NCBI GenBank assembly: GCA_964350885.1
Contig: CAYGKV010000005.1
Location: 1,305 to 65,304, forward strand
Direction: 5' to 3'
From: an uncultured Candidatus Saccharibacteria bacterium
GTDB taxonomy: Bacteria > Patescibacteriota > Minisyncoccia > Phycocordibacterales > UBA2100
DNA length: 64,000 nucleotides
The notes under the pieces are model-generated. The model saw only the letters and a program-made list of their open reading frames with translations, was not told where the DNA came from and did not search any database. Of the stretch, positions 19,504 through 56,382 are shown piece by piece. The stretch's first letter is position 1; each line of letters starts with the position of its first letter. Made by a program: the position numbers and the translations under genes.

Positions 19504-19528
19504 ACTTGTATACGGTATACTGATCGAT

Positions 19529-35589: not shown

Positions 35590-36804
35590 ATGAAAAAAGA
35601 AAATCTAGGCGTCGGATGTTTCGAGCCGACAAAGAAAGCCGAGCAGTACGTCCTTAAAGTACTTCGAAGCGGACGGCTCACATACGGGCCGTTCATACAG
35701 CGTTTCGAACGGGAGTTCGCCAGAGCGCATGATTCAAAGTACGCGGTGATGGTCAACAGTGGCACGTCCGCGCTCCGCATCGCATTCGCGTGCCTCAAGG
35801 AGGTCGAAAAGTGGAAAGACGGCGACGAGGTTCTGGTTCCATCGATTACCTTCGTCGCGACGGTAAACACGATAATCAGCAATGGACTCAAGCCCGTGTT
35901 CGTCGATGTCGACCCTCTCACATACAACATCGACCCCAAAGAAATCGAAGCAAAGATTACGAAGAGAACACGAGCCATCGTTCCCGTACACCTGATGGGC
36001 CTCCCATGCGAGATGGGGCCGATCATGAAGATCGTAAAGAAGCACAAACTAAAAGTCGTCGAGGATTCGTGCGAGACGATGTTCACCAATTATCGAGGGA
36101 AAGTCGTGGGGAGCTTTGGAGATATCTCGTGCTTTTCGACGTATGTCGCGCATCTCATCATCACCGGTGTCGGAGGGCTCGCGGTAACGAGTAATCCGAA
36201 GTATGCAGAGGTTTTGCGTAGTCTTGCCAATCACGGTCGCGACAACATTTACATCAGTATCGATGACGACAAAAATACAAAAGGCAAGCTCTTCAGGCAG
36301 ATCATTGCGCGCCGTTTTCGATTTATACGTCCGGGGTACAGTTTTCGCGTGACGGAATTCGAGGGGGCTCTCGGTTGCGCGGCGCTGGAAGTGGCGCCGG
36401 ATATGATGAAAATCCGTAAGCGCAATGGCACCTACCTTACAAGCCGGCTCAAGTCGCTCGAAAAATATATACAACTTCCATCCTATCCGAAACACTCCGG
36501 GCACGCGTTCATGATGTACCCGATCGTCGTGAAAGCGCGTTGTGGTATCGACAAGCAAGACCTCGTGAATCACTTAGAGGGGAAGGGGATCGAGACACGT
36601 GACCTCATGCCGCTCATCAATCAGCCGTACCTGAAGAAGATGTACGGTATCAAAGAGAGTGATTATCCTATGGCGAAGTGGATAAACGGCAACGGCTTTT
36701 ACATCGGCTGTCATCAAAAAATGGGTACACGCGAACTCGACTTTATCGCTGGTACATTCAGTAGCTACATCGCGAAGGCTGTGGGTAATAAGAAGCGCAC
36801 ATAG
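35590..36804 (+). CDS. DegT/DnrJ/EryC1/StrS-family PLP-dependent sugar aminotransferase
   Basis: FEREFA...AVMVNSGTSALRIAF...PSITFVATVN and the catalytic-Lys region FSTYVAHLIITG fit the family. Confidence 0.75.
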   Translation: MKKENLGVGCFEPTKKAEQYVLKVLRSGRLTYGPFIQRFEREFARAHDSKYAVMVNSGTSALRIAFACLKEVEKWKDGDEVLVPSITFVATVNTIISNGLKPVFVDVDPLTYNIDPKEIEAKITKRTRAIVPVHLMGLPCEMGPIMKIVKKHKLKVVEDSCETMFTNYRGKVVGSFGDISCFSTYVAHLIITGVGGLAVTSNPKYAEVLRSLANHGRDNIYISIDDDKNTKGKLFRQIIARRFRFIRPGYSFRVTEFEGALGCAALEVAPDMMKIRKRNGTYLTSRLKSLEKYIQLPSYPKHSGHAFMMYPIVVKARCGIDKQDLVNHLEGKGIETRDLMPLINQPYLKKMYGIKESDYPMAKWINGNGFYIGCHQKMGTRELDFIAGTFSSYIAKAVGNKKRT

Positions 36805-38226: not shown

Positions 38227-38392
38227 CGGTGAAGGGTAGAGGGCGTTGGCGCGTGCGCGAACCTCTTTGATCAGGAGCAAGAGGTTGGCGACCATACGTA
38301 GGCCAAAGTGTAGCATATTGCTCAGAATCGCATTCTAGCTCCGTATTTCACGCGATGGTATAGTGTACCCTTAAGTGTTTTTACAACATACC

Positions 38393-39364
38393 ATGTCTGA
38401 TTTTTATAAAGGAAAAAGGGTGGTCGTTACGGGAGGGGCCGGTTTTATAGGGAGCTATGTCGTGGAAATGCTTGTTGAGCGGGGTGCGAATGTAACGATT
38501 CCACTTCGGGCGAGCACCAAGATCGATTTCCTCAGTGGTGTGCGCGATCGGGTGTCTCTCGTACAAGCCGACCTCCGCGAACGCTCAAGTATCGATACCC
38601 TCTTCAGAAAGACGGACATCGTGATCAATCTCGCTGCGGCGAAGGGCGGGGGCATCGCGCACAGCATGCAACACCATGGGTCGCTCTTTCGTGACAATAT
38701 GCAGCCATTTCTCAATACGCTTGATGCAGCACGCGAGGCCGGTGTAGAGCGGTTTCTTGTGGTGAGCTCTGCTTGCGTGTATTCAAAGGAAGCGAGTCAT
38801 CACGCAAAAGAATCTGAGGGCTTTGTAGGAGTGCCGGAAGCGGCCAATGCCGGCTACGGGTGGTCCAAGCGTATGGAGGAATACATGGGGCAAGCGTATG
38901 CGGAGGAATTTGGTATGCGAATTGCTATAGCGCGTCCCTACAACGGATATGGCCCACGAGACGATTTTTTCGCGGAATACAACCATGTGATACCGGGGCT
39001 GATTAAAAGAATACATGCTGGGGAGGACCCACTTGTCGTCTGGGGCACCGGCACGCAGACGCGTTCTTTTTTGTACGTCACGGATTTTGCGCGTGGGATA
39101 CTCGATGTGTGCGAAAAGTACGCCGTGGCAGATCCGCTCAACATCGCAAGTGACGAGGAGATATCCATCGCCGATCTTGCGCGCCTACTCATCGAACTCT
39201 CCGGCAAGAACGTGAAAGTCGAATTCGATACGACAAAGCCGGACGGACCTGTGCGTCGGAGTGCTGATACCAGCAAAGCATATGAAAAAATTGGTTTCCG
39301 CACCGAGGTGCCTCTGCGCGAGGGGTTGAAGAAAAGTATTGAATGGTATCAGAGGCACATATAG
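38393..39364 (+). CDS. NAD-dependent epimerase/dehydratase (GDP-L-fucose synthase / NDP-sugar reductase-like SDR)
   Basis: KRVVVTGGAGFIGSYVVEML...SSACVYS...YGWSK (YxxxK). Confidence 0.7.
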   Translation: MSDFYKGKRVVVTGGAGFIGSYVVEMLVERGANVTIPLRASTKIDFLSGVRDRVSLVQADLRERSSIDTLFRKTDIVINLAAAKGGGIAHSMQHHGSLFRDNMQPFLNTLDAAREAGVERFLVVSSACVYSKEASHHAKESEGFVGVPEAANAGYGWSKRMEEYMGQAYAEEFGMRIAIARPYNGYGPRDDFFAEYNHVIPGLIKRIHAGEDPLVVWGTGTQTRSFLYVTDFARGILDVCEKYAVADPLNIASDEEISIADLARLLIELSGKNVKVEFDTTKPDGPVRRSADTSKAYEKIGFRTEVPLREGLKKSIEWYQRHI

Positions 39365-39366
39365 TC

Positions 39367-40032
39367 ATGTCTGTAACCCTTATCGCAGCGACACTGAATG
39401 AGCTTGAAGCGGCTAAGGTCGTTTTACCCCGCATAGATCGCTCACTCGTGGACGAGCTCATTGTGGTCGACGGTGGCTCGACCGACGGTACGGTGGAATT
39501 TTGCGAGGCGCAAGGCTACACCGTATTGAAGCAAAAAGAGCGGGGCTACGGATCGGCAATGAAAGAGGCGTCGAAAATCGCGAAAGGCGACCTCGTCATC
39601 GAATTCCCGCCCGACGGTAATTCACTTCCAGAAAAAGTCCCCGATGTTATACGGAAATTGCAAGAAGGCTATGATTTCGTCATCGCATCGCGTTACGCAC
39701 CTGGTGCACGAAGCGAGGATGATGATTTTCTGACCGCGTTAGGGAACTGGGGATTTACTTTTGCAACCAACCTTCTCTTTTGGAGCTCATATACTGATGC
39801 GCTCGTTGGTTTCCGCGGCTACCGGAAGAGTGCATACGAGAAACTCGATATGACGGCGCGCGGCCTCGATTGGTCTATACAAATGCCGATACAATTCAGG
39901 AAAAAGAGACTACGCGTCGCGGACATCCCCGCTATTGAGCCTAAGCGCATTGGGGGCATCCGCAAAATGAAGCCATTTAAGACCGGGTGGCGTATCCTCA
40001 AGACACTTATCAAGGAGCGGTGTATTGTATAG
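39367..40032 (+). CDS. glycosyltransferase family 2 (dolichol-phosphate-mannose synthase-like)
   Basis: VTLIAATLNELEA...VVDGGSTDGT... and DFVIASRY are GT2/DPM1-like motifs. Confidence 0.7.
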   Translation: MSVTLIAATLNELEAAKVVLPRIDRSLVDELIVVDGGSTDGTVEFCEAQGYTVLKQKERGYGSAMKEASKIAKGDLVIEFPPDGNSLPEKVPDVIRKLQEGYDFVIASRYAPGARSEDDDFLTALGNWGFTFATNLLFWSSYTDALVGFRGYRKSAYEKLDMTARGLDWSIQMPIQFRKKRLRVADIPAIEPKRIGGIRKMKPFKTGWRILKTLIKERCIV

Positions 40033-41296: not shown

Positions 41297-41297
41297 G

Positions 41298-42089
41298 CTA
41301 CGTCGTTGGTTTGCGCAGTGCCCACCAGGTGGGGAGTGAGAGCGCCTGATCCCTCGTGTACCGGCGACGCTTTAGGAGTAGTTCGTCTGCACACATTTGA
41401 ATGTGCGGCAGCGCACGTTGTGCAGCCGTGTATTCTGAGAAATCGTACATAGAGCGGTAGAAGAACCACTGACTAAGACTGCGCATCATGTTGGCTTTCA
41501 AGAAGTCGAGGGTCCACGGTATGTCGTCGAGTAGCAAGTATCCACCGGGCTTGAGGAGGTCGTGCGCGAGCAGCATCGTTGGCATATCGATATAAAACGT
41601 GTGGTGGCCATCGATATAAATAACGTCGTATTTATCGTCGTTCTTGAGCATCTCAAAAAGCGTCCAGGCGTACGTGCCTGTCGGATTCGATCGGAACGTA
41701 ATGCCTTTGGTATCCGTGCCCTTTATCGTGAGCTCGCGCATGTGGCTATCGCACACACTTTTAAAGTCGCAGCCGACATACGAGACACCATGAGCGCGCA
41801 TCAGCTCGAAACGGTCAAAGCGGGGGAACTCACCGATACCGACTTCTAGGAACGAACCGCCACTCATCGATGTGATGATCTTCTTCACGTGCTCCTCTTT
41901 GCGCACCCGCGGGTCCTCTGCAGTTTCCTGGCTCTGATGTACGAAACCGGCGTTCTTGAGCTTAAACGCGTACCATAGCGGGGAGAGAGCGATATGCCCC
42001 AGTCGCTTGCCGATCCGGACCGACGCGAGTGCAGCGGCACGACGTATACCCATTTCTTGTATGCGATTGATGATGTTCATGCGGGTCAT
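41298..42089 (-). CDS. class I SAM-dependent O-methyltransferase-like (TylF/MycF, Methyltransf_24-like)
   Basis: GSFLEVGIGEF...YDVIYIDGHHTFY is characteristic of macrocin-O-MT-like / CmcI-like methyltransferases. Confidence 0.55.
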   Translation of the reverse strand: MTRMNIINRIQEMGIRRAAALASVRIGKRLGHIALSPLWYAFKLKNAGFVHQSQETAEDPRVRKEEHVKKIITSMSGGSFLEVGIGEFPRFDRFELMRAHGVSYVGCDFKSVCDSHMRELTIKGTDTKGITFRSNPTGTYAWTLFEMLKNDDKYDVIYIDGHHTFYIDMPTMLLAHDLLKPGGYLLLDDIPWTLDFLKANMMRSLSQWFFYRSMYDFSEYTAAQRALPHIQMCADELLLKRRRYTRDQALSLPTWWALRKPTT

Positions 42090-43351: not shown

Positions 43352-43409
43352 GCTACAGCGAAAGCTCTCTGTGAGCCAGTAATACCTCGTATGATACAAT
43401 CCGGCGCGT

Positions 43410-44594
43410 ATGCACGATGTAGCAGGTGTGACCGCCGTATCACGGGCGGGGGGTTCCATCAGTACGACTTTGCGGCAGCCTTTTTTTGCCGCCTATATCG
43501 GCTGCCTCATTGTCATCGCAAGTCTCTCGCTCTACTTTTTGCCGCACATCCTTCAGGGTGATGCCATTAGCTATGTCGATGCAGCGAAAGCGTATGCAGG
43601 AAATGTCCATTTAGATATCAACCTTCCTCCTGGACCTTTGACCCGTGAGACCGTTACTCCAGAGATTGTCGCGGTGCATCGCATGCTTACCTCGCCGCTT
43701 GGTATCGAGATATTACGATTCTTTGCGTGGATTACGGGTTCGTTTGAGGTTGGATGGCTTGTCATGGACACATTTTTTTTCTTTGGAGGCAGCATCGTAC
43801 TGTACCTACTCCTTGCGCGGTTCTATGAAAGTGAGCGTGTGGCATTTATCGGCGGACTCTTCTACGCCGGCAATTATTCCATGCTCTCTCAGGGAATGGG
43901 CTATTTCATGGATATAGGCGGATGGTTCTTCTACCTTCTCGCCCTCCTTCTGATCTATCTCTATATAGAATCTTCCAATTATCGGATGCTCGTCATCGCA
44001 GCGCTCATTATCGCGCTCGGTGGTCTTTTTAAGGAAAATGCGTATATGGCGTGTATTCCGATTGGGGCAGTATTATTGTTCGAATACTACCGCACACCGC
44101 TCGCTTTTCTCGCACGGTCGGTGCCTCTCGCCTTAGTCGTCACCTTACCCGCAGTGGTACAACACATCCACATGTATCGTGAATATGGATACACGTACTC
44201 ATATTGGGTAAATTTAAGTCAAGATTTTTACGAATACGACTCCGTCCTCATCGAGTATTTCAAGAGTTTCGGTTCACTTTTGACGTTTCTCGCTCCCATC
44301 GCGTTGCTTGGGGCGTATGAGTTCGTACGTCGTTTCAATGATCCTTGGCTTACTCACAAGAAGAAAGTCTTCCTCGTGTCTGTGCTTGCGTCGTCCATTC
44401 CGGCCGTATTATGGCCTGCGGTTACTCAGCGCGTTCTTTTCCTCGCTGTTCCCGGGCTTATTCTGCTCGCGGGACTGTGCGTCAAACGATTCGAGCGATA
44501 TTGGTACGCATTCGTACCGCTTATCATTTTGTATCTGCTTGCGGCTCTCACTATGGATTCCTTCATTCTCAACTACGTAAATCTGCCGATTTAA
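43410..44594 (+). CDS. polytopic membrane protein, ArnT/PMT (GT-C)-like glycosyltransferase or O-antigen polymerase-like
   Basis: ~11 TM helices with loop regions. No soluble domain. Confidence 0.45.
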   Translation: MHDVAGVTAVSRAGGSISTTLRQPFFAAYIGCLIVIASLSLYFLPHILQGDAISYVDAAKAYAGNVHLDINLPPGPLTRETVTPEIVAVHRMLTSPLGIEILRFFAWITGSFEVGWLVMDTFFFFGGSIVLYLLLARFYESERVAFIGGLFYAGNYSMLSQGMGYFMDIGGWFFYLLALLLIYLYIESSNYRMLVIAALIIALGGLFKENAYMACIPIGAVLLFEYYRTPLAFLARSVPLALVVTLPAVVQHIHMYREYGYTYSYWVNLSQDFYEYDSVLIEYFKSFGSLLTFLAPIALLGAYEFVRRFNDPWLTHKKKVFLVSVLASSIPAVLWPAVTQRVLFLAVPGLILLAGLCVKRFERYWYAFVPLIILYLLAALTMDSFILNYVNLPI

Positions 44595-44595
44595 T

Positions 44596-45741
44596 ATGTC
44601 TCGAAAGCCCTTCTTCAAGGACTGCGATTTGTACCCGCGCGATGCGCGGACAAATCGGGAGCCCATCGTGCATCTCGCGTATACGGTCCCACTCGGTCGA
44701 ACGCGCGCCAGGCGCGCGTTCGACAAAGCGCTTCGACTGATGCACCTGACTCCGCTACACCGGTTTGCACACGACGCGCTCATTCCTTGGCAGCGCCCGA
44801 TACGTGCGCCGCATAGCATCACGCACAACCTTCTCGACGCTATTCGCGCACGTGGGTACGATGTTCGTCTCTATAGTTTGTATGAGCACACGGTCGCGAA
44901 CCTCAAAGAGGGCGATATATTCATCGGCCAACCCGTACCACAAGGCGGATTTGGCGCGCAAAGATCGTACACCGACGATCGCGATTCTGTTACGTCGCGG
45001 ACCATCCGTGAATTCCCAAGCGAGAGGAATTTCATCATCATGCCCTACGCGCACGATGTACAGTATTCGACATTTGCAAAAGAGTTGATAGGAGAAAATC
45101 AGAGGGCAGGTGGCGGCTCCATCTTTATCGGAGGAAAGATATGGGAACGTGATTGGAATACTCGTTCGCCGCTTTCCGGCTTGGGATCCTTGCGCAAATT
45201 GTATCTTCAGATGGCGGTTGATGCCGCAGAGTATCCTCTCGTTAAGACAAAGTTTAATCCGAAAGGAAAACGACGCTACCTCTACATAGGCCATACCGCG
45301 TGGTACAAAAATACTGTCGAGCTTGAGCGCATAGCAGCACGGATGCCGGAGTATGAATTTGCGCATATCGGAGGAGGCGAAGTGAGGGGGTGGAAAAAAC
45401 TTTCCAACTTCGCATCTCTCACACCGGAATACGTATCACTACTTGCTGAAAAGTACGATATCTTCGTAAACGTCAGTATTACCGACCCACAAACCACCAC
45501 TGTTATGGAGCAAATGTGTTTCGGATTTCCGGTAGCATGCACGCCCGAGTCGGGATACGAATATGATTCCATCGTGCCGCTCTCGGTCAACGATACCGCA
45601 TGGAATCGGAAAAAGCTTTTGGAATTGCAATTTGAGGGAGAGGACGCACTTTTCGAGCGTGCTCGTAAAAACCGAGACCATGTGCTAAAGTCTCACAACT
45701 GGGAAACATTTACGCAGTCAATCATGTCATTCATCTTATGA
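44596..45741 (+). CDS. putative glycosyltransferase (GT1/GT4-like C-terminal domain)
   Basis: YLYIGHTAWYKN...YDIFVNVSITDPQTTTVMEQMCFGFPVACTPESG resembles the Glycos_transf_1 nucleotide-sugar-binding half. Confidence 0.4.
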   Translation: MSRKPFFKDCDLYPRDARTNREPIVHLAYTVPLGRTRARRAFDKALRLMHLTPLHRFAHDALIPWQRPIRAPHSITHNLLDAIRARGYDVRLYSLYEHTVANLKEGDIFIGQPVPQGGFGAQRSYTDDRDSVTSRTIREFPSERNFIIMPYAHDVQYSTFAKELIGENQRAGGGSIFIGGKIWERDWNTRSPLSGLGSLRKLYLQMAVDAAEYPLVKTKFNPKGKRRYLYIGHTAWYKNTVELERIAARMPEYEFAHIGGGEVRGWKKLSNFASLTPEYVSLLAEKYDIFVNVSITDPQTTTVMEQMCFGFPVACTPESGYEYDSIVPLSVNDTAWNRKKLLELQFEGEDALFERARKNRDHVLKSHNWETFTQSIMSFIL

Positions 45742-46355
45742 GCGCCAAGCCCAAAGTATCTCGAGCCGTCGTAGAGCGGTACGATCTGACATTCGAGGAA
45801 TTCAAACAATTCGAGCGCCAAGTATTGGTGCAAGAGCATTTGAAACGCTATGGATCCATAAGGAGATTCTGCTTCGGGGATGTGCTCGATTTCGCATGTG
45901 GATGTGGATACGGCTCCTATATGCTCGCGCTGAATCCTGATGTAACATCGGTTGTGGCTGTAGACAATAGCAAAGAAGCTGTTCAATGGGCAAAGGAACA
46001 TTTCTCGCATCCACATATAACCTACAAGGTCGCGGATGCGCGCGAGGTCAAGGGCACGTTCGATACGCTCGTGTGCCTCGAAACAATTGAACATCTCAAA
46101 GATACGCGGATAATTCCGCAGATAGTTGAGAGATGTGCAATATCGAATCTCATAATTTCATTCCCCGACAAGAAAACCACACACTACAACTCTCATCATT
46201 TTCATGACTTTGTGCGGCAGGATATCGTCGACCTGTTTCCCAAACACGTCGTCTACCACGTGATCCGATTTGCGGATAGCACGGCGGTCTTGCTCACCAG
46301 ATTGTCCGACAAAGCACCCTCCGAACTTTTCAGGAATATCCGCGATCTCGGTTGA
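45738..46355 (+). CDS. class I SAM-dependent methyltransferase
   Basis: VLDFACGCGYGSYMLA (motif I), ...LVCLETIEHL. Confidence 0.7.
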   Translation: MSAKPKVSRAVVERYDLTFEEFKQFERQVLVQEHLKRYGSIRRFCFGDVLDFACGCGYGSYMLALNPDVTSVVAVDNSKEAVQWAKEHFSHPHITYKVADAREVKGTFDTLVCLETIEHLKDTRIIPQIVERCAISNLIISFPDKKTTHYNSHHFHDFVRQDIVDLFPKHVVYHVIRFADSTAVLLTRLSDKAPSELFRNIRDLG

Positions 46356-46443
46356 TCGCAAAGAGGCTCGCGTCTTTCCTTAAGAAATTATCCCCCTCTT
46401 GTCCACACGTTGTACACCATTATCGCGTGTCCGCGTTTTTTTT

Positions 46444-46469
46444 TTGCATTCGTGTACCGGAGTTATAAT
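46444..46469 (+). promoter_or_regulatory. candidate promoter (TTGCAT ... TATAAT, short 14-nt spacer) in an AT-rich tract upstream of the LamG gene
   Basis: A T10 run, then TTGCATtcgtgtaccggagtTATAAT, about 35 nt upstream of the ATG at 46503. Confidence 0.25.
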
Positions 46470-46502
46470 TACCGACTTATTTAATAAGCTCTCATATTAA
46501 TT

Positions 46503-48083
46503 ATGAACAAAATAGTTGCAGCCCTCCTCGCGTCCATTGCGTTTTTAATACCCGCAGTTTCCTCTGCCGCTAATCTTAGTAACTTGAATGGTCTTACCAC
46601 GGCAACGCAAACATTTGCTACAAGCACTGCGACAAGCTCTCACTTACGAATTCAATCATCGGGTAGTGTACACACATTCCTGTGGGACGGTACTCCGTGG
46701 ACTCTGGCCCAAGGAGGCACGGGGACAACGACGTTTGCAACGAGCTCTATTCCTTTCATCAACAATGGGCGATTTTCTGCCAATCCAGCCCAGCTCTTCT
46801 GGGATGCCGTGAACAATATTCTCAACATTGGTGGCACCACTACTCCTGCGGCGAAGTTGAGTGTCCGTGGTTCGGGGAGTCTCGACCTCTTCAATGTTGC
46901 TTCTTCGACGGGGACATCGTTGCTATTCGTGAGCAGCGCGGGAAATGTAGGAATCGGCACCACCACACCATTCGAAAAACTGGAAGTAGTCGGCAATGGA
47001 AAATTTTCCGGTTTTCTGCAATCAAATACGCTAACCATTCTCGGAACCTCTACACTCATAGGTAGGGTGGGTATCGGGACTACGAGTCCGCGATCTGCTC
47101 TTGATATTTTCGGTGCGTTCTATAGCCAGTTGGTAACGGCGAATGGTTCGAACATTGATTGGAACGCAGGAAATGTACAATCCCTCGCGCTCACGAGCAA
47201 TCCCACACTTACTTTCAGCAACGGACAAGCGGGCGGGGAGTACAAGCTGATTCTCAATCAGGACGCAATAGGTGGTCGCACGGTCGGATGGCCGGGTAGT
47301 GTGAAGTGGCTTCTGGGGAGTGCTCCGACACTGGCGACTAGCAGCAATAGTACGGACATCGTCAAGTTCGTATACGATGGCACCAACTACCTCGGTTTCT
47401 CCGCTGTTGCTCGTAGTGTCGCTCCACCTCCGCCCTCCTCGCTTCTTTCAGGTCTCCTTTCGTATTGGAGATTCGACGAATCAAGTGGCAATGCAGCGGA
47501 TTCGAGCGGCAACGGAAAGACGCTCACAAATGTTAACTCTGCGACATTCACTCCGGGTAAGGGGGGCTTGGGTAATGCGGCAACTCTAGTTCGTGCAAGT
47601 TCTCAATACTTTACTCGCTCAAACGGGACATACTATGATGTCACCGGGGGAACACTAAATTGCTGGGTAAAATGGAACACAAATCCCAGTGTACTTTCTA
47701 TTGTCTCGTACAGTACGAATTCCGGAGCTTCTGGTCTCGACTTTCGTGTCAAGGAAGCAAATGTCTTGCACGGATACATGGGGGCGGGGGCCAACGCCGT
47801 TTTTGGGGCTACGGCTTTATCATCGGGTACGTGGTACATGGCAACATACACATGGAACACTGGTGGCAAAAAGGTTTTCCTGAATGGAATGGAAAACGGT
47901 ACCAGCACAGTAGCTGAGACAATGACGGCGGGCAATACCAACTTTTATCTCGGCATACGCTCTGACCTCAATGAACCTTTTGACGGAATGATAGATGAGT
48001 GCGGGATTTGGAATCGGGTGCTCTCACCTTCAGAAATAACCGCACTGTACAACAATGGAGACGGGCTTCAGTACCCATTCTAG
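46503..48083 (+). CDS. secreted protein with tail-fibre-like GIGTT repeats and C-terminal LamG (concanavalin-A-like lectin) domain
   Basis: Signal peptide (AALLASIAFLIPAVSSA). Repeats NVGIGTTTPFEKLEVVGN / RVGIGTTSPRSALDIFG. The C-terminus (LLSYWRFDESSGNAADSSGNGKTLT...WYMATYTWN...KVFLNG...LGIR...FDGMIDECGIWNRVLSPSEI) is a Laminin_G_3 pattern. Confidence 0.65.
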   Translation: MNKIVAALLASIAFLIPAVSSAANLSNLNGLTTATQTFATSTATSSHLRIQSSGSVHTFLWDGTPWTLAQGGTGTTTFATSSIPFINNGRFSANPAQLFWDAVNNILNIGGTTTPAAKLSVRGSGSLDLFNVASSTGTSLLFVSSAGNVGIGTTTPFEKLEVVGNGKFSGFLQSNTLTILGTSTLIGRVGIGTTSPRSALDIFGAFYSQLVTANGSNIDWNAGNVQSLALTSNPTLTFSNGQAGGEYKLILNQDAIGGRTVGWPGSVKWLLGSAPTLATSSNSTDIVKFVYDGTNYLGFSAVARSVAPPPPSSLLSGLLSYWRFDESSGNAADSSGNGKTLTNVNSATFTPGKGGLGNAATLVRASSQYFTRSNGTYYDVTGGTLNCWVKWNTNPSVLSIVSYSTNSGASGLDFRVKEANVLHGYMGAGANAVFGATALSSGTWYMATYTWNTGGKKVFLNGMENGTSTVAETMTAGNTNFYLGIRSDLNEPFDGMIDECGIWNRVLSPSEITALYNNGDGLQYPF

Positions 48084-48107
48084 TCTAGATTCGGTCAATC
48101 AGTACGG

Positions 48108-49313
48108 CTACTCTAAAACATGAGGGGTAATGAATTTTAGGTGAGGGAATTTGGGAGAGATTTTGGATTTCAAGAAATCCGCGATATTCCAGGCGAGAAT
48201 GAGAGCGTGAGTGACCTCTTCGTTTATAGCGTCGTCAGAGCGTATCGGAAGGTGCGAACCGGGGGTATATTTGCCGATCTTTAAAGGAGATGCGTCGGTA
48301 GCGAAGTCGATCAGCGTCGTGTCTATGCCACAGTAGTTTAAGAGCGTATTTCCTTTGGCAGCTGCGCCTATTGCGACAACTTTCCCGCCTCCCAATCGAG
48401 CATCCACTAATTCTTTAAGCAACCGCATCTTGCATTCCCTCACGCTTGCTGCGAATGCACCCCACGTTTCTACGGAGTAAAGTCCTGATTCCTCCTCCAG
48501 GGCTATTTGCGTTTTGACCAAGGGGCTTTCTGTGCCGAATCCGACAAAGATCCGTATCGATCCGCTCATGTAGTCATTTTCCTCAAGGTGGGTTATAGAA
48601 AGACCGAACTTTTTGAAAAAGGGCACAAGAGGCTTCACAGCGATATATGAGACGTGCTCAAGGTACACGACATCAAAATGTTTTTTCCTGATAACTTCCA
48701 GGAAGTAGGGAAGTTCAATGACAAAGCTGCCGCTTTTGTCCAAAATGGAAACTACAGATTCCATGAATTCATCAAGAGGGGAAATGTGATTGAATGCGTT
48801 CGTTATGGTAATTGCTTTTGCCCGACCTTTTTTCAAGATTATTTTGGCGGACGAATCGTTGAAAAAATCATTGATCGTAGGAATACCATTCTTCTCAGCA
48901 AGCGCCACGATATTTGAAGCCGGATCCACTCCTTGGATCGTTGCTCCAAGAGCTTTGAATGCACCAAGGAGTGTGCCTACGTTGCTGCCTATATCCACCA
49001 CAAGCTCTCCCTTCTGTACGCCCGCGCGCTCGGTCACCTCCTGTGCCATATCCGTGAAGTGTTTTACTGAGATCTTAGAATTGCCGGAATCATAACTGTA
49101 GTCATTTTCTTGGTAGCGGATTTCTGCGGGTACGACGAAACTGTTCATCCCGTGCCCGCAATTCCGACAAAGAAGTACGGAAAGAGGGTACCGTCGCTCT
49201 GGTTCTTGAAGCTGGTTCTCCTTGAGAAAGAAGTCCGCTAGCGGATGGAATCCCAAATCAAGGACCTTCTCCAGGTCTTTCGAGCCGCACAAATGACAGT
49301 TCGTGACGTTCAT
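48108..49313 (-). CDS. NDP-hexose C-methyltransferase paralog (TylCIII family), lower GC
   Basis: CHLCGSKDL...CRNCGH zinc ribbon, VVDIGSNVGTLL motif I and a C-MT C-terminal domain. Homologous to the gene at 40025-41296. Confidence 0.7.
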   Translation of the reverse strand: MNVTNCHLCGSKDLEKVLDLGFHPLADFFLKENQLQEPERRYPLSVLLCRNCGHGMNSFVVPAEIRYQENDYSYDSGNSKISVKHFTDMAQEVTERAGVQKGELVVDIGSNVGTLLGAFKALGATIQGVDPASNIVALAEKNGIPTINDFFNDSSAKIILKKGRAKAITITNAFNHISPLDEFMESVVSILDKSGSFVIELPYFLEVIRKKHFDVVYLEHVSYIAVKPLVPFFKKFGLSITHLEENDYMSGSIRIFVGFGTESPLVKTQIALEEESGLYSVETWGAFAASVRECKMRLLKELVDARLGGGKVVAIGAAAKGNTLLNYCGIDTTLIDFATDASPLKIGKYTPGSHLPIRSDDAINEEVTHALILAWNIADFLKSKISPKFPHLKFITPHVLE

Positions 49314-49699
49314 AGAGGAATTGTATCGTCGACAAAGGGGCCATCCTTAAAGGCGTACATGAGGGCATCCTCGATGACCCGTATCTCATGACCACCTTGT
49401 AGCATCAACAGGCATTGGCCGGCCGTAACATTTTTCTTCTCGATCAGGTCGCCTTTGTTGTCAAAAATACTCGCCTCAATCGCGCCCTTGATGACAACGA
49501 TTGCCTCCTGCGGCTGCTGGGTGGTCTTCGGGATCTTTTTGTGGGTATGTTTTGCAACCACATGGCCACTCTTCCGCTTCATGAGGAGTAATTGGATTGA
49601 GTCCCTAGGATCCGTGACAGGAAACGCGCCCTCCTGGATCGATTCAAGATCCACGATAACCGCAAACATTTCTCCTCCCGATCTGATCTCAGTTATCAT
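49310..49699 (-). CDS. cupin-fold protein, WxcM/FdtA-like candidate NDP-sugar 3,4-ketoisomerase
   Basis: Small cupin with an HTHKK motif resembling the FdtA His pair. Located between the C-MT and gmd paralogs. Confidence 0.4.
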
Positions 49700-50660
49700 G
49701 TGGGTGAGCTAAGTCATAATCCACCATTGCCCGGACAATTTCGTGGAATTTCATTTTCGGTTTCCATCCGAGCTTCTCTATCTTCGAAGCATCTCCCAAA
49801 AGCAGGGGCACCTCGTTGGGCCGTTTATATTTGTCGTCTATTCTCACAAACTTTTTTGACTCAAGGCCCACATATGAGAACGCTTCTTCGACAAACTCTC
49901 GTATTGTGTGAGTCTCTCCCGTTGCCACAACGTAGATATCAGGCTTTTCCTGCTGCATTATCAGATATATAGCTTCCACAAACTCGGGGGCCCATCCCCA
50001 GTCGCGTTTTGCGTCCAGATTGCCCAACACGAGAGAATCTTGTAGACCCAGCTTAATCTTTGCTACTGCCTTGCTGACCTTTTTTGTGACGAATGTACCC
50101 CCACGTCTCGGACTCTCATGGTTGAAGAGTATTCCCGTAGTGGCAAACATACCGTACCCATCTCTGTACTGTCTTGTTAGGTGAAAGGCCGCCAGCTTAG
50201 CGACCCCATAGGGACTCTGGGGTACCATCGGAGTATTTTCGTTATATGGCGGAGGTGTCCCCGGCACACCAAACATTTCCGAACTCGACGCCTGATAAAA
50301 TTTGGTATAAGGGGATAGTTTCCTTAGAGCTTCAAGAACATTTAATACACCGACCGCATTCGCCTCGAGGGTGTATTGCGGCACCTCAAAGGATACTTTT
50401 ACATGAGACATGGCTCCGAGATTATAGAATTCATCAGGTTTAACTTCTGAAATGATGCCGGATATTGATGGGCTGTCGGTAAGATCACCATGGTACGCGT
50501 GAAAATTTGGATTTCCGACAATGAGGTGATCTATCCGGGCTGAGGCAAAAGAAGAGAGGCGGCGCATTATCCCGTGCACTTCGTATCCTTTTGAGAGAAG
50601 AAGCTCCGCTAAATATGAACCATCCTGACCAGTTACTCCGCTAATGATCGCTTTTTTCAT
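49689..50660 (-). CDS. gmd: GDP-mannose 4,6-dehydratase paralog (short form, lower GC)
   Basis: [25 protein letters not shown]...[10 protein letters not shown]...SPYGVAKL...[12 protein letters not shown] are canonical GMD motifs. Confidence 0.8.
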
Positions 50661-50694
50661 ATGTGAGACACCAATATATCACACATCAAACTTT

Positions 50695-51621
50695 CTATCC
50701 TTTATTTGTAAACCACTTGTACGTTTGTGCCAGTCCGTCCCGAAGTGCGATTTTATGGTGCCACCCAAGCGCGTGGATCTTGCTTACATCGAGGAGTTTT
50801 TGCGGCGTGCCGTCTGGTTTCGTCGTGTCCCAAACTATCTTTCCTTCATATCCGACAATCTTTTTCACCATCTCCGCGAGGTCTTTTATGGTTACGTCTT
50901 CTCCGGTGCCGATATTGATGATGGAAGGGTCGTCGTAGGTTTCCATAAGGAATACGCAAGCATTTCCAAGATCGTCGACATGCATGAATTCTCGTCTTGC
51001 AGAACCAGAGCCCCACACCAAGACTTCGGGAGCTCTCTTTTCCTTCGCCTCGTGGAAACGTCGTATGAGTGCGGGGAGGACATGCGAGCGCTCGGGGGAG
51101 AAGTTGTCGTTCGGGCCGTAAAGATTCGTTGGCATGACGGAGATGAAGTTTGAGCCGTACTGGCGATGATACGCCTGACATAATTCAATACCCGCGATCT
51201 TGGCGATGGCGTACGCACTGTTGGTTTCTTCGAGCGGGCCAGTCATTAAGTACTCTTCTTTGAGTGGTTGGGGAGCGAATTTTGGATAGATGCAGGAGCT
51301 ACCGAGAAATAGAAGTTTCTTCACGCCACTTACATGCGCTTCGTGTAAGACATTCGTCTGCACGATGAGATTTTCACGGATGAAATCTGCCGGGAATGTA
51401 TTGTTGGCCATGATGCCCCCGACCCGTGCGGCGGCGAGGAAGACGTACTCAGGTCGCTCAGTCTCGAAGAAATTTCGGACGGCTGTTGGGTCTAAAAGCT
51501 CCAGTTCCTCGTGGGTTCGAAGAACGATATTGCCGTATCCGCTTTCCCTGAGTTGTCGGACAATGGCCGAACCCGCGAGTCCTCGGTGTCCCGCGACGTA
51601 TATTTTTGCATCCCTCTTCAT
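50695..51621 (-). CDS. fcl: GDP-L-fucose synthase (GDP-4-keto-6-deoxymannose 3,5-epimerase/4-reductase)
   Basis: KIYVAGHRGLAGSAIVRQL...FLAAARVGGI...LLFLGSSCIYPK...SAYAIAK matches Fcl/WcaG. Confidence 0.85.
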   Translation of the reverse strand: MKRDAKIYVAGHRGLAGSAIVRQLRESGYGNIVLRTHEELELLDPTAVRNFFETERPEYVFLAAARVGGIMANNTFPADFIRENLIVQTNVLHEAHVSGVKKLLFLGSSCIYPKFAPQPLKEEYLMTGPLEETNSAYAIAKIAGIELCQAYHRQYGSNFISVMPTNLYGPNDNFSPERSHVLPALIRRFHEAKEKRAPEVLVWGSGSARREFMHVDDLGNACVFLMETYDDPSIINIGTGEDVTIKDLAEMVKKIVGYEGKIVWDTTKPDGTPQKLLDVSKIHALGWHHKIALRDGLAQTYKWFTNKG

Positions 51622-52100
51622 ACTTTTTTCAACGCTTTGAGTGCTCCCTCGATTCGGGCTCTAACATTAGGATGGATGTCATCGTCATCCACAGAAAACC
51701 AACGTTTCTCACTATGCTGGCTGTCTAAGACAACGACCTCATCGGAGAGCATATGCACAAAGTATACATCGACGGCATGATAGTTTACTCCTTCAAAAAT
51801 CGAAGAATCATTTATCTCGTTTAAAACCCCCGCATACAAAAGTGCGTCCGGAGGAATGGACAAATCAAGCTCTTGCTTTCCGATACGGCAGGCCGCATCC
51901 AAGAAATTCTCATTCTTATAGAGCCGTCCGCCAAAACTGTAAAATTGCCCCGCGTATGGTTCATTCGTTCGCCTTCCCAGAAGTATCTTCGTTTTGTCAT
52001 GGTTCAGGAATATGACATCGACGGTCATGATCGGCAGATTTTCCATCGCCGTGCGGTAGAGCTCGAGTGGCAACTTTCCCACTATGCGTCGCTCGTTCAT
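51618..52100 (-). CDS. gmm: GDP-mannose mannosyl hydrolase (NUDIX)
   Basis: 160-aa NUDIX protein ([39 protein letters not shown]). Its start overlaps the gmd stop (ATGA). The ORF track's long N-terminal extension is Arg-rich junk. Confidence 0.7.
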
Positions 52101-53155
52101 GCGCCTTGTTTGTCCACCATCGCGAGGTCGGCCTCTATCATGATACGGATAAGCTCTTTGAATCTCACTTTCGGCTTCCACCCCAGTTCCTTTCTCGCCT
52201 TCGATGCGTCGCCAAGGAGGATATCCACTTCCGCTGGCCGGTAGTAGTGCGGGTCTATCTCTACGAGCACCTTTCCGGTCTTCTTGTCGATGCCTTTTTC
52301 CTGCCTTCCCTTGCCTTTCCACACGATATCGAATCCCAGTACCCGCCCGGCCTCTTCGACGAGCTCGCGGACTGAGTGTGTTTCGCCGGTTGCGAGGACA
52401 TAGTCGTCGGGGGTCTTTTGCTGCAACATAAGCCACATACCCTCCACGTAGTCTTTGGCGTATCCCCAATCACGTTTTGCATCGAGATTACCGAGGTAGA
52501 TCTTATCCTGCAGCCCACGGCTGATACGAGCGAGTCCCGCGGTGACCTTGCGTGTGACGAACGTCTCCCCACGCCGTGGAGATTCGTGATTGAAGAGAAT
52601 GCCATTCACGGCAAAAAGTCCGTAGCTTTCGCGATAATTCTTCGCTATCCAAAAGCCAAATACTTTCGCGCATCCATACGGTGAGCGTGGATGGAAGGGC
52701 GTTGTCTCCTTCTGTGGTGTTTCTGCAACTTTTCCAAACATCTCTGAGGACGATGCTTGGTAGAAACGTGTCTTGATGCGGGTCTCTCGAATAGCATCGA
52801 GCATACGCAAGGTTCCGAGAGCGTCCACGTCGGCGGTGTATTCCGGGATGTCGAAGCTCACGCGCACATGACTCTGCGCGCCGAGATGATATATCTCGTC
52901 AGGCTTCACTTTCTCGAGGATACGATTCAGACTACTTCCATCGGAGAGGTCGCCATAATGGAGCTTGAGCCGACGATCCCGCTCGGGGAGTTTTTCGAAG
53001 AGATGCTCAATGCGCCCGGTATTGAACGTGCTCGCGCGGCGGATAATGCCATGCACCTCGTATCCTTTTTCAATGAGGAGCTCGGCGAGATAGGAACCGT
53101 CTTGTCCGGTGATTCCCGTGATGAGCGCTCTTTTGCGAGCTTTGTTTTTTGCCAT
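52097..53155 (-). CDS. gmd: GDP-mannose 4,6-dehydratase
   Basis: [31 protein letters not shown]...[10 protein letters not shown]...SPYGCAKV...[15 protein letters not shown], full length. Confidence 0.9.
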
Positions 53156-53239
53156 TCGGCGCATTATACGTTGCAAGCACGAAGCGGGTCAAACAGCAGT
53201 TGCCTTTCGTCACGGTGCAGACTAGACTGATCCCATCAT

Positions 53240-54100
53240 ATGAAGGGTAAGAAAAAGCCAAAATGGGCTCCCGATTTGTCTACGCGTAGCGTAGCTACAA
53301 ATCGCAGTCCTGTATGGGTCGCCGTCTCCGGAGGCTTTGATCCCCTCCATGTCGGGCACGTGCGTATGTTCAAAGAAGCGCGGAATCTTGGCGACAAGCT
53401 TATGGTCATCATCAACAATGACAATTGGCTTCAACATAAGAAAGGGTTTGTCTTCATGCCACAAAGAGAGCGTGCGGAGATTGTGAAGGAGCTTCCATTT
53501 GTGGACAAAGTGGTTTTCACGGACCACGGGATCAAAGACCCTGATCGAAGTATTACGCGCTCGCTTAAGAAATTCAAACCGGCGATTTTCGCCAACGGCG
53601 GCGACCGTAAGGGTGTCAAAGATATTCCCGAGGTGGCAATTTGCGAAGAGCTTGGCATCAAAATGGTGTTTAACGTCGGGGAAGGGGGGAAAGTACAATC
53701 TTCTTCGTGGATGGTTGGCGCTTCTCGTCGGCCTGCCGCGCAAACGATCAGGCCGTGGGGGAGATTCTTCGGGTGGGATAGCGGGAAGGGGTGGTATCTA
53801 AAAACAATATACATAGCGGCCGGTAAAAGGCTTTCACTGCAGTTCCATCATCATCGCTCGGAATACTGGATGTTGGTCGAAGGAGATGCAACGGCGACGA
53901 TCCAAAAAACCGGCGAGAGGCCACAGCGCGTAGCGTTAAAGAAAGGGCAGGTCATACACGTCGACACGAAAGTCGTACACCGCTTGGAATCCAAGCGGGG
54001 CGGTGTTGTCGTGGAGATTGCTGTCGGGAATTTTGATGAGAACGACATCGTTCGTATCGAGGATGATCATGGGCGAGCACCCGGGGTTCTCCTCAAGTGA
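53240..54100 (+). CDS. fusion protein: cytidylyltransferase-like nucleotidyltransferase (HxGH) + cupin (type II phosphomannose-isomerase-like)
   Basis: VAVSGGFDPLHVGHVRMFKEA (HxGH of the CTP-transferase / RfaE-domain-II family), then WGRF...GKRLSLQFHHHRSEYWMLVEGDA (cupin, MPI-like). Confidence 0.55.
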   Translation: MKGKKKPKWAPDLSTRSVATNRSPVWVAVSGGFDPLHVGHVRMFKEARNLGDKLMVIINNDNWLQHKKGFVFMPQRERAEIVKELPFVDKVVFTDHGIKDPDRSITRSLKKFKPAIFANGGDRKGVKDIPEVAICEELGIKMVFNVGEGGKVQSSSWMVGASRRPAAQTIRPWGRFFGWDSGKGWYLKTIYIAAGKRLSLQFHHHRSEYWMLVEGDATATIQKTGERPQRVALKKGQVIHVDTKVVHRLESKRGGVVVEIAVGNFDENDIVRIEDDHGRAPGVLLK

Positions 54101-56382
54101 GTCGTGATAGAATGTCGACCATGTTACTTGAGAAGACGTTGCGGTGGGTTGTAATTGGGGGGATATTTTCTCTCACGGCTATTCCGTTCATAGTCTCGAC
54201 CTCGCTTTTCTTCCCCTACATAACAGGAAAGAATTTTACCTTCAGAATTATCGTCGAGATAATGACGGGAGCGTGGCTTGTCCTCGCACTCGTCTACCCG
54301 CAATACCGGCCTCGTCGTTCTTGGATACTCACTGCGTTTACGGTATTTGTGCTTGTGATCGGTCTTGCAGATGCGCTCGGTGCGTATCCCTTCAAGAGTT
54401 TTTGGAGCAACTATGAACGCATGGATGGTTGGGTAACGATCGCACATCTTCTTATGTACTTGTTTGTTGCTGCATCTGTCATGACTACTGAGTTGTTGTG
54501 GCGACGACTTTTGTATGTTTCGCTCGCATTTTCGACGTTTGTCTCAATCTATGGATTTTTGCAAATACTTGGAATTACTGGAATCGGTAACAACAGCCCT
54601 GGCGGGCTTGGAGCTCGTATCGATGCGACGTTTGGCAACCCCATCTACTTGGCAGTCTATATGCTCTTCCACATTTTTATCGCACTTTGGTTGTGGTCGC
54701 GGGCGTGGGAGGAGCGGCGGGCGGGTAGCCGACTCTCGGTTTCACTACTTTTTTGGTTTGTAATTGTTGTCGATACGCTCATCCTCTTCTTTACCGGCAC
54801 GCGTGGCACGATACTCGGACTTCTCGGAGGGTCATTGCTCACTGCAACTCTGATTGTTCTCTTTGCTCGGAGTTCGCCGCTTGCCTGGCGCATCGCACTT
54901 GGGTACATTCTTGCAATTCTCATCGCAGCTGGAAGTTTCTGGATAGTTCGTGATGCCGCATGGGTAAAAGAAATTGGCTTCTTGAATCGCCTCGCAACCA
55001 TCTCGTCTTCCGAGAATGGCGTTAAGGCGCGCTTTATCAACTGGTCTATCGCGTGGGAAGGCGTGAAGGAAAGGCCTCTGCTTGGGTGGGGGCAAGAAAA
55101 TTACGCGGTTGTGTTTGATCGATACTACGATTCGCGCATGTACGCACAGGAGCCGTGGTTTGATCGCGTACACAACATCATTTTTGATTGGCTCATTGCT
55201 GGTGGATTCTTCGGGCTCTTGAGCTACCTCTCTATTTTTGCTGCGACATTGTGGGCACTCTGGCGACCGAGCGTCGAGCGAGGAAGTACTGAGATCAGCA
55301 GGCCGAACGTGAGAAAAGAATTCTCGACCGTTGAGGCAAGTATCTTTACAGGGCTCTTGGCTGGATATTTTTTCCACAATTTCTTCGTGTTCGATAACAT
55401 TACGAGCTACATCCTCTTTGCCACCGTCCTTGGGTACATTGCGTGGCGGAGCAGCGCGGCATCTGACGACCCTCCGTTTTGGCAGGGTTCGCTACCAAAA
55501 AATCTGGCATCGTTTCTTACGATAGGAGCGATCTTCCTCGTTTGGGGCGCGTATATGATGGTCAATGCTCCTGCGCTCTCCCAAAACAAAACCCTCCTTC
55601 AATCTCTTGTTCCACAAGCGGGAGGAATATCACAGAACCTTGAGATAATTAAGCGTGCTATTGCAATCGGCGCATTTGGTACACAGGAAGCTCGTGAACA
55701 ATTGGCGCAGATGGCATCTCGAATTGCGGGATCAGCCGAGGTCAGTCAAGCGCAAAAGCAGGCCTACTATGAAACAGCCACTTCCGAGATGCTGCTCCAG
55801 TACAAGGAATCTCCACTCGACGCTCGGGCGCCGCTATTTTTGGGCATCATTCATAATACATTTGGTAATTACGCAGCAGGGGCTGAGGCGCTCGCACTCG
55901 CGCTCTCGCTTTCACCCGGGAAACAATCGATCCTTTTTGAAATTGCACAGAACGCGGAAGCGCGTGGAGATTCAAGTGCGGTTATGAAAGCGCTTGAGGC
56001 CGCATATGAGGAAGAGCCCGCAAACGCGCAAGCACGGATATTGTACGCGTCGGTCCTGATCCGATCCGGCAATTATGCGCGTAGCGATGAAGTACTTGCG
56101 CCGCTTATATTGACGGGGGAGGCGGCCGATCCTCGAATCGCGGCAGCGTATCTCGCAAACAAGCGATTCGACAAGATAGTGGCGGTGTGGGAGGCGCGCG
56201 TGAAGGCGCAGCCGCGCGACCCCCAGGGATATTTCACCCTTGCGGCCGCGCACCATGCGATGGGTAATTCTGCGAAAGCGATCGCAACCCTCGATGTGGC
56301 TGCTGCTCTTTCTCCCGAAGTAGCGCAGCAGGCGGCGGCATTTATTCAGCAGATTCGAGACGGGACGGTACAGATTCAGTAA
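54097..56382 (+). CDS. O-antigen ligase (Wzy_C)-family polytopic membrane protein fused to C-terminal TPR repeats
   Basis: ~12 TM helices with the characteristic large periplasmic loop. The C-terminal ~300 aa contain TPR-like helical repeats (ALALALSLSPGKQS..., AIATLDVAAALSPE). Confidence 0.65.
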   Translation: MSRDRMSTMLLEKTLRWVVIGGIFSLTAIPFIVSTSLFFPYITGKNFTFRIIVEIMTGAWLVLALVYPQYRPRRSWILTAFTVFVLVIGLADALGAYPFKSFWSNYERMDGWVTIAHLLMYLFVAASVMTTELLWRRLLYVSLAFSTFVSIYGFLQILGITGIGNNSPGGLGARIDATFGNPIYLAVYMLFHIFIALWLWSRAWEERRAGSRLSVSLLFWFVIVVDTLILFFTGTRGTILGLLGGSLLTATLIVLFARSSPLAWRIALGYILAILIAAGSFWIVRDAAWVKEIGFLNRLATISSSENGVKARFINWSIAWEGVKERPLLGWGQENYAVVFDRYYDSRMYAQEPWFDRVHNIIFDWLIAGGFFGLLSYLSIFAATLWALWRPSVERGSTEISRPNVRKEFSTVEASIFTGLLAGYFFHNFFVFDNITSYILFATVLGYIAWRSSAASDDPPFWQGSLPKNLASFLTIGAIFLVWGAYMMVNAPALSQNKTLLQSLVPQAGGISQNLEIIKRAIAIGAFGTQEAREQLAQMASRIAGSAEVSQAQKQAYYETATSEMLLQYKESPLDARAPLFLGIIHNTFGNYAAGAEALALALSLSPGKQSILFEIAQNAEARGDSSAVMKALEAAYEEEPANAQARILYASVLIRSGNYARSDEVLAPLILTGEAADPRIAAAYLANKRFDKIVAVWEARVKAQPRDPQGYFTLAAAHHAMGNSAKAIATLDVAAALSPEVAQQAAAFIQQIRDGTVQIQ

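Follow-up and report, generated by a model that had tools for sequence, protein, structure and literature searches.

The 64,000-nucleotide stretch analysed here (hereafter the window; contig CAYGKV010000005.1 of an uncultured Candidatus Saccharibacteria bacterium) carries six consecutive genes on its minus strand at positions 48108-53155: gmd1, a NUDIX hydrolase gene, fcl, gmd2, a small cupin gene and a C-methyltransferase gene (CMT) (Table 1). The open reading frames and their translations confirmed the positions given in a first-pass annotation made from the letters of the DNA, which had read the minus strand as gmd-gmm-fcl followed by a gmd paralog, a cupin and a CMT. Neighbouring genes overlap by 4, 4, 11 and 4 nucleotides (nt), the sole gap being the 34 nt from fcl to gmd2. 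The TTGACC-18-TATAAT site upstream of gmd1 is the only strong promoter-like match between 47.8 and 53.6 kb, which is weak evidence as such sites are, in total, about as many there as chance would give, and a scan of the same region for terminator-like sites found no excess over chance. Because of the overlaps, the single 34-nt gap, the one strong promoter-like site and the lack of a terminator excess, the packing is operon-like: two adjoining modules, A (gmd1, NUDIX, fcl) and B (gmd2, cupin, CMT), form one tightly packed transcription unit within a surface-glycan island of ~30 kb.

Module A is an ordinary GDP-L-fucose route. Gmd1 scored 578.9 bits against TIGR01472 (cutoff 415) and its top match in the PDB was human GMDS (7e-146). 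The second protein has a NUDIX fold (PF00293, 2e-10, 41 bits vs a cutoff of 21); its top match was the Gmm model (PRK15434, NF011963), which it reached with 64.6 bits only (cutoff 146), so that of the original gmm label the NUDIX assignment holds and the remainder is better worded as Gmm-like. Fcl reached 497.4 bits with NF047922, 2.6 under the cutoff of 500, and matched E. coli GMER (1bws) at 2e-124, with S107, C109, Y136, K140 and H179, the catalytic residues listed for that enzyme (PMC3539893), all identical.

Module B begins with a second GDP-mannose 4,6-dehydratase, Gmd2, whose TIGR01472 score barely exceeds the cutoff and which is matched by Arabidopsis MUR1 (1n7g) at 5e-109. Both copies have the N-terminal GxxGxxG and the catalytic Ser/Thr-Glu ... 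Tyr-x-x-x-Lys of short-chain dehydrogenases/reductases (SDRs); their motifs, [10 protein letters not shown] / [19 protein letters not shown] as well as SPYGxAK, fall in register between the copies and with MUR1. The two share 53% identity, a ~17-residue insertion is missing from Gmd2, and in a neighbour-joining tree the cassette-linked gmd2 genes form a tight clade of their own, apart from the gmd1 type. The description of the second gmd as a shorter (323 vs 352 amino acids, aa) and distinct paralog was thus borne out, also by the phylogeny that the first-pass annotation had proposed as a check, and a recent in-genome duplication is ruled out by the 53% identity and the separate clades. The last gene of module B encodes a TylC3-family methyltransferase. 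Its three-part architecture (a zinc-binding PF08421 domain at the N-terminus, an S-adenosylmethionine (SAM) core and PF08484 at the C-terminus) lies above the Pfam cutoffs, as does that of a second such enzyme in the window, CMT2; Cys6, Cys9, Cys49 and Cys52 of the CMT align with cysteines of MtmC, and its PDB matches were MtmC (4rv9, 8e-78, residues 3-389), KijD1 (2e-51) and TcaB9 (5e-49).

Table 1. Features of the six-gene locus, of the surrounding glycan island and of the distant cupin loci (aa, amino acids; positions are those of the window unless a locus is named)
Feature	Position	Strand	Remarks
Promoter-like site TTGACC-18-TATAAT	53163..53192	-	upstream of gmd1; 11/12 consensus positions
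gmd1, canonical long-form GDP-mannose 4,6-dehydratase, 352 aa	52097..53155	-	TIGR01472; PF16363 1e-155
NUDIX hydrolase, Gmm(WcaH)-like, 160 aa	51618..52100	-	start overlaps gmd1 stop by 4 nt
fcl, GDP-4-keto-6-deoxy-D-mannose 3,5-epimerase/4-reductase, 308 aa	50695..51621	-	NF047922; 1bws
fcl/gmd2 junction, 34 nt	50661..50694	.	boundary of the modules and recombination breakpoint; dS shift vs L011
gmd2, short-form GDP-mannose 4,6-dehydratase, 323 aa	49689..50660	-	first cassette gene; TIGR01472 423.3 bits
WbuC-type cupin, 129 aa	49310..49699	-	overlaps of 11 nt with gmd2 and 4 nt with CMT; motif H50-x-H52, E64, H103
CMT, TylC3/MtmC/TcaB9-family NDP-hexose C-methyltransferase, 401 aa	48108..49313	-	PF08421, SAM-methyltransferase core, PF08484
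LamG/concanavalin-like protein, 526 aa, secreted-looking	46503-48083	+	Thr/Gly/Ser-rich repeats GIGTTTP/GIGTTSP; C-terminal domain
RfaE-domain-II-like nucleotidyltransferase + ManC-type C-terminal cupin fusion	53240..54100	+	PF01467 5e-12; PF01050 2e-19
CMT2, second C-methyltransferase, 423 aa	40025..41296	+	PF08421 + PF08484; 30% identical to CMT, BLASTP 1e-53
GT2, polyprenyl/dolichyl-phosphate hexose transferase-like	39343..40032	+	AglJ TIGR04182 4.5e-29, dolichyl-phosphate hexose transferase 1e-22, neither reaching its cutoff
Fcl-like SDR, 329 aa, candidate epimerase/4-reductase	38375..39364	+	GDP-L-fucose synthase 182 bits (cutoff 500)
DegT-fold protein, ColD/E1-like 3-dehydratase candidate	35590..36804	+	RfbH top NCBIfam match, 252 bits (cutoff 423)
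Distant WbuC-type cupin loci	L022:7001-8442, L023:7001-9302, L024:7001-9308, L025:5842-8216		cyanobacterium, Margulisbacterium, Geobacteraceae MAG, Lachnospiraceae MAG

Module B is a conserved, mobile cassette of the candidate phyla radiation (CPR). A scan of species-representative genomes, with synteny assessed by tblastn and all-against-all clustering, gave 12 distinct related loci, all of them from Patescibacteria; homologue searches put the window itself in the Patescibacteria, as Kaiserbacteria-like, the nearest named relatives being metagenome-assembled genomes (MAGs) of Candidatus Kaiserbacteria. gmd2, the cupin gene and CMT are contiguous in 12 of the 12 loci, with identities to the window of 83-97%, 48-84% and 74-93%, respectively, and metagenome contigs fetched separately (L005-L009) have the same arrangement, several being identical or near-identical to loci of the scan. 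The usual cassette unit comprises five genes: in 11 of the 12 loci the three are accompanied by a second cupin (138-169 aa; 25-29 bits with PF14667, the CapF C-terminal cupin, and a weak RmlC similarity) and a short SDR (227-250 aa; weak similarity to RmlD, 2ggs). Neither of these accompanies the cassette in the window or in its closest relative, L011, whose gmd2 is 97% identical; tblastn of all members against the whole 64-kb window gave nothing better than E ~0.01, and neither gene was found in the visible 20 kb of the L011 locus. In L010 and L013 fcl is separated from gmd2 by a GT2 glycosyltransferase gene and the short SDR, and CMT is followed by the second cupin; the window has fcl directly against gmd2 and, past CMT, a LamG-domain gene. 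The latter (46503-48083) and a methyltransferase gene at 45738-46355 fill the stretch past CMT where L010 has the second cupin and a 182-aa gene.

The gmd1-nudix-fcl trio is found with the cassette only in L010, L011, L013 and the window. In some relatives (L005, positions 1660-3558 and 5432-7545; L006, L018 and L021) the cassette lies beside nonulosonic-acid genes (NeuB-SAF, a CMP-transferase-type CTP_transf_3 and DegT), which shows that it is joined to glycan pathways of very different kinds. A GT2 gene of the family found at 39343-40032 stands immediately upstream of gmd2 in L005, L016 and L021.

The synonymous divergence (dS, Nei-Gojobori method, NG86) of the window from L010, L011 and L013 changes abruptly between the two modules. 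Against L011, dS was 0.35 for gmd2, 0.66 for the cupin and 0.59 for CMT, whereas it was saturated for fcl, 2.8 for nudix and 1.28 for gmd1; third-position identity was 0.65-0.82 in the cassette vs 0.41-0.57 in the fucose trio. This jump at fcl/gmd2 implies that the two trios have different histories. Against L010 the cupin (dS 0.54) and CMT (0.55) alone were close, and against L013 the close block was the methyltransferase-flippase-PMT_2 run at 41.3-44.6 kb. To judge from these comparisons the glycan island is a recombination mosaic, with one of its breakpoints at the fcl/gmd2 junction. As part of the overall explanation that we favour, the exchange probably took place among related CPR lineages, with no distant donor involved, and either block may be the imported one. 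The three cassette genes are under purifying selection, with dN/dS of 0.03-0.18 against the three relatives and of 0.03-0.15 against L011; since L011 likewise lacks the two partner genes, selection persisted after they were lost. Over the whole of 36813-56382, blocks with dS of 0.35-0.67 alternate with saturated ones in the same genome pairs, and different blocks of the island are close to different relatives (41298-44594 to L013; 36813-38316 and 43410-44594 to L011).

The first-pass annotation had proposed a horizontally acquired, AT-richer cassette grafted onto the GDP-fucose operon, which together with a nearby DegT aminotransferase could produce a GDP-linked 6-deoxyhexose that is C-methylated, aminated or both. 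Spelled out, this explanation has a cassette from an outside lineage, a native operon and an FdtA-type 3,4-ketoisomerase, and we consider it, taken as a whole, improbable. The dS break at fcl/gmd2 agrees with it, and so does the pooled composition, as gmd2-cupin-CMT has a GC content of 0.476 vs 0.514 for gmd1-nudix-fcl, about four points less, and is the lowest among 50 runs of three genes (mean 0.516, sd 0.016). The claim that the last three genes are AT-richer nonetheless holds weakly, as single genes do not divide cleanly by trio: the values are 0.537, 0.464 and 0.513 for gmd1, nudix and fcl and 0.470, 0.500 and 0.473 for gmd2, the cupin and CMT, in a window whose 52 genes average 0.512 (sd 0.027), so that the lowest of the six is the nudix of the supposedly native trio and the cupin is average. 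Codon usage (JS distance) gave nothing beyond effects of gene length. Across the 12 related loci the GC of the cassette runs from 0.35 to 0.52 and that of the flanks from 0.32 to 0.52; the cassette tracks its host and is drawn to mid-range in 12 of 12, exceeding the flanks in low-GC hosts and falling under them in high-GC hosts, and its low GC here is thus no donor signature. Because this pull to mid-range is the behaviour of a strongly constrained coding block, composition is uninformative on a foreign donor, and GC was rejected as a signal of transfer. What stands of the horizontally acquired module is its separability (contiguity in every locus, with the fucose trio present only in the three closest relatives) and the switch in dS; a foreign origin argued from composition does not, and the relatives found are all Patescibacteria.

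For the small cupin the sole family match was WbuC (TIGR04366; 33.4 bits, E 3.4e-8, under the cutoff of 42); no Pfam family, FdtA PF05523 included, matched it at E<=1, and a profile search of PDB sequences returned noise only (best 0.048, a phage head fibre). Its 94 close homologues (56-100% identical) are all unnamed or 'hypothetical'. In an alignment of 47 homologues H50, E64, H103 and E104 are invariant, while H45, H52 (>=90%) and K54 are near-invariant, and H50/H52, E64 and H103 make up a predicted cupin metal motif, HxH...E...H. The AlphaFold (AF2) model is a cupin barrel (pLDDT 80), for which Foldseek against the PDB placed oxalate decarboxylase on top (1e-4) and WlaRB, FdtD and RmlC at ~1e-3. 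A profile search of 1.84 billion representatives retrieved 1595 relatives, three of them at E<=1e-30, which suggests that the CPR clade is a compact one within a large family of ~130-aa proteins. Among 60 wider relatives sampled, 58 matched TIGR04366 at E<=1e-3 (best 3.7e-14) and none matched PF05523 at E<=0.01. By profile score, therefore, the window cupin is best described as a peripheral WbuC-type relative and not as a certified member of the family. We know of no function assigned to WbuC, and literature searches, which gave mainly resistance-plasmid and serotyping papers, yielded none, so the label explains little.

These searches also bear on the FdtA-type ketoisomerase that the import from an outside lineage was supposed to have brought. 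The HxHKK string on which that assignment was built is present as H-T-H-K-K, and its H50-T-H52 pair is conserved; the pair is also a generic cupin metal motif, here together with E64 and H103, and with PF05523 unmatched by the cupin and by its relatives, membership of the FdtA family gives way to WbuC. In four of four distant loci, from four other phyla (Chamaesiphon, Margulisbacteria, Geobacteraceae and Lachnospiraceae; Table 1), the WbuC-type cupin stands beside a DegT-fold gene, as FdtA adjoins FdtB, and a ~250-aa SAM methyltransferase is present in all four, directly adjoining the cupin in two. The layout resembles the Tyl1a-TylB-TylM1 (mycaminose-type) gene logic and could be of help in finding a function for the family. 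With such neighbours the cupin family is, therefore, a habitual partner of enzymes acting on NDP-keto-sugars, a context that fits an enolate-forming epimerase or isomerase without choosing between them.

The same pairing of the cupin with a DegT-fold enzyme and a methyltransferase favours a second alternative, in which the cupin is a 3,4-ketoisomerase by function, though not by family, and its 3-keto sugar goes on to methylation at C2 or C4 or to other enzymes, without any 3-C-methyl product. WlaRB and FdtD also appeared in the fold search, with TM-scores of 0.55-0.60. We nevertheless regard this alternative as unlikely. Foldseek ranked ketoisomerases no better than other cupins, and MtmC, KijD1 and TcaB9, the solved relatives of the CMT, are named 3-C-methyltransferases, which act on 4-keto sugars. 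The cupin keeps the full metal motif (HxH, E, H), which FdtA-type ketoisomerases, to our knowledge, lack. Furthermore, hhalign (68% probability, E 5e-5) aligned the cupin family with the second, CapF-like cupin of the cassette, an epimerase domain, and the HxHK, H and GP motifs of the two coincide.

The explanation that best accounts for the locus, in which we place reasonable though far from full confidence, is a route to a GDP-linked 3-C-methyl-6-deoxyhexose, in a locus whose two modules owe their different histories to recombination among CPR lineages; the chemistry of the route is inferred. Gmd2 would convert GDP-mannose to GDP-4-keto-6-deoxy-D-mannose, which the metal-type cupin would epimerise or isomerise via an enolate. 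The CMT would then transfer the methyl of SAM onto a carbon beside the keto group; the analogy to MtmC, KijD1 and TcaB9 makes C3 the likeliest. In most genomes the CapF-C/RmlC-like cupin and the short RmlD-like SDR would complete the sugar, epimerising it and reducing its 4-keto group, an order that mirrors TylC3-TylK-TylC2 in mycarose synthesis. In the window three candidates might finish it: the adjacent Fcl, if it can epimerise C5 and reduce C4 when C3 is quaternary; the Fcl-like SDR at 38375-39364; or an MtmC-like reductase activity of the CMT itself, MtmC having a dual activity. The product would be a GDP-6-deoxy-3-C-methyl-hexose, which GT2, GtrA and GT-C enzymes could carry on to polyprenyl phosphate and the cell surface. 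Of the products suggested in the first-pass annotation, a GDP-linked C-methylated 6-deoxyhexose is still the best functional guess, and an aminated one is not indicated.

Several points weigh against this explanation. The solved relatives of the CMT all act on dTDP-sugars, and its GDP specificity is presumed solely from the invariant linkage to gmd2. The fold comparison fails to separate ketoisomerases, epimerases and unrelated metal cupins. The two usual finishing genes are missing from the window, where the pathway may thus lack steps or lead to another end. Finally, NG86 dS is noisy on genes this short, and the contigs of the relatives share no housekeeping gene that could serve as background.

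The missing genes raise a further alternative, namely that the cassette here is a decaying or redundant remnant which, without its epimerase and reductase partners, makes no finished sugar, with gmd2 as a spare Gmd. Its starting point is that neither the 64-kb window nor the visible 20 kb of L011 holds the second cupin or the short SDR that 11 of 12 relatives carry, a LamG-domain gene standing where the second cupin is in relatives. Yet the three cassette ORFs are intact and their dN/dS is low even against L011, which shares the loss; Fcl, the Fcl-like SDR and the MtmC-like methyltransferase offer replacement activities in cis, and the missing genes could sit elsewhere in the genome. We therefore hold a remnant to be very improbable. 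A bolder extension of the 3-C-methyl route is tentative and, in our estimation, has the odds against it: the WbuC-type cupin may represent a new class of metal-dependent keto-sugar epimerase/isomerase that readies GDP-4-keto-6-deoxymannose for C-methylation, and the five-gene cassette may be the first complete, self-contained pathway for a GDP-linked methyl-branched 6-deoxyhexose of the virenose/evalose type.

Other genes of the island bear on the supply and fate of such sugars. The nearby DegT-fold protein (35590-36804), earlier taken for an aminotransferase, was probably misassigned: in PDB alignments the His of its 'STYVAHLI' falls on a His in E1 (3bcx) and ColD (2gms), an active-site residue, and on the pyridoxal phosphate (PLP) lysine in perosamine synthase and another aminotransferase (3bn1, 7b0m). 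By this alignment the protein is probably a 3-dehydratase dependent on pyridoxamine phosphate rather than an aminotransferase, which makes a 3,6-dideoxy (colitose-like) branch likelier at this locus than an amino sugar. As the gene also lies 11 kb off, among other genes, it speaks against the aminated sugar of the proposed foreign cassette. The Fcl-like SDR, GT2 and CMT2 (38375-41296) form a trio conserved in L010, L011 and L013, which may constitute a second, independent C-methyl-sugar branch.

Divergent from gmd1, the unusual fusion of an RfaE-domain-II/HldE-like nucleotidyltransferase with a ManC-type cupin at 53240-54100 occupies the same position in L010 (3495-4325), L011 (4998-5825) and L013 (3797-4579). 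It may be a non-canonical GDP-mannose-forming enzyme and a possible source of GDP-mannose; neither ManB nor ManC turned up among the window genes scanned. In Coxiella an HldE-like gene, CBU_0678, was reported as indispensable for making virenose (PMC13252051). The island also holds parts for lipid-linked surface glycosylation, namely GT2 enzymes, a GtrA-type protein, a Wzx-type flippase, PMT_2 (GT-C) and Wzy_C-TPR. Three plus-strand fusions were observed as well: GT4 with UDP-glucose/GDP-mannose dehydrogenase domains (27711-29648, 645 aa), GT4 with a PMT_2 GT-C (30695-33451, 918 aa) and a SAM methyltransferase with GT2 (33456-34865, 469 aa). Upstream of the island, by a few kb, is a gene for a TrwB/VirD4-like type IV coupling-protein homologue (19337-21379, plus strand; PF10412, PF02534).

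In the literature searched, the characterised C-methyl-branched deoxysugars are dTDP-linked, the sole GDP route found, that of Coxiella virenose, is an in-silico one, and no biochemical demonstration of GDP-sugar C-methylation was found. Compact, highly conserved and made up of soluble enzymes, the cassette would lend itself readily to a study of this reaction in vitro, which could also give the widespread WbuC-type cupins a function. If the bolder extension, with the cupin as a new class of enzyme, is true, the WbuC family gains a function and Patescibacteria bear branched-chain sugars on their surfaces. The locus adds to the evidence that CPR bacteria, despite their reduced genomes, invest in elaborate and recombining surface-glycan loci. 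Current understanding is not overturned; the cassette is a useful lead, a known kind of pathway with a new variation.

The 3,4-ketoisomerases FdtA, QdtA and WxcM (PF05523) are likewise small cupins with an HxH pair, and the distant relatives of the window cupin stand beside DegT-fold enzymes as FdtA does beside FdtB; unlike these ketoisomerases, the window cupin family keeps the Glu and the third His of the metal site and has no PF05523 match. WbuC itself, known from L-FucNAc O-antigen clusters, shares the length (~130 aa), the cupin fold, the HxH...E...H motif and the setting in a 6-deoxyhexose cluster, although the window cupin is below the cutoff of that family (33 vs 42 bits) and its partners are Gmd and CMT instead of FnlABC. 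In CapF of S. aureus, FnlB and WbjC a cupin C3-epimerase domain is fused to an SDR 4-reductase domain; the PF14667 cupin and the short SDR of the cassette resemble a split CapF, and the family of the window cupin can be aligned with the former of these. In contrast to CapF, the two are separate polypeptides, in reversed order, presumably act on a GDP- and not a UDP-sugar, and are both absent from the window.

The closest published parallel, and a precedent for the favoured explanation, is the synthesis of virenose (6-deoxy-3-C-methyl-gulose) in Coxiella burnetii, for which a GDP route was proposed in silico from Gmd (CBU0689) through a TylCIII-like CMT (CBU0691) to Fcl/GMER (CBU0688), with the Gmd step alone shown experimentally (PMC3539893, PMC3204966). 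A 2026 preprint regards the pathway as not fully characterised and names a different methyltransferase, CBU_0683 (PMC13252051). Both systems combine Gmd, a TylC3-family CMT and an Fcl-type enzyme and would lead from GDP-mannose towards a surface glycan, and the Coxiella genes, judging by their consecutive locus numbers, are close together. The CPR cassette differs in having an obligatory WbuC-type cupin between gmd and CMT and, outside the window, a CapF-like cupin and short SDR of its own in place of Fcl; the carriers are unrelated organisms, and CBU_0690 of Coxiella is listed as virenose-associated.

In its logic the cassette is also akin to the dTDP-L-mycarose and D-mycarose pathways (TylC3/EryBIII/MtmC, TylK, TylC2), its CMT being a clear homologue of MtmC (8e-78). 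The full CPR cassette shares with mycarose synthesis the succession of a methyltransferase, a cupin epimerase and a 4-ketoreductase. Unlike those pathways, its carrier is presumably GDP and not dTDP, it includes an additional WbuC-type cupin, and it has no 2,3-dehydratase or 3-ketoreductase genes, so that the sugar keeps its 2-OH; and its setting is that of a cell-surface glycan rather than of antibiotic biosynthesis.

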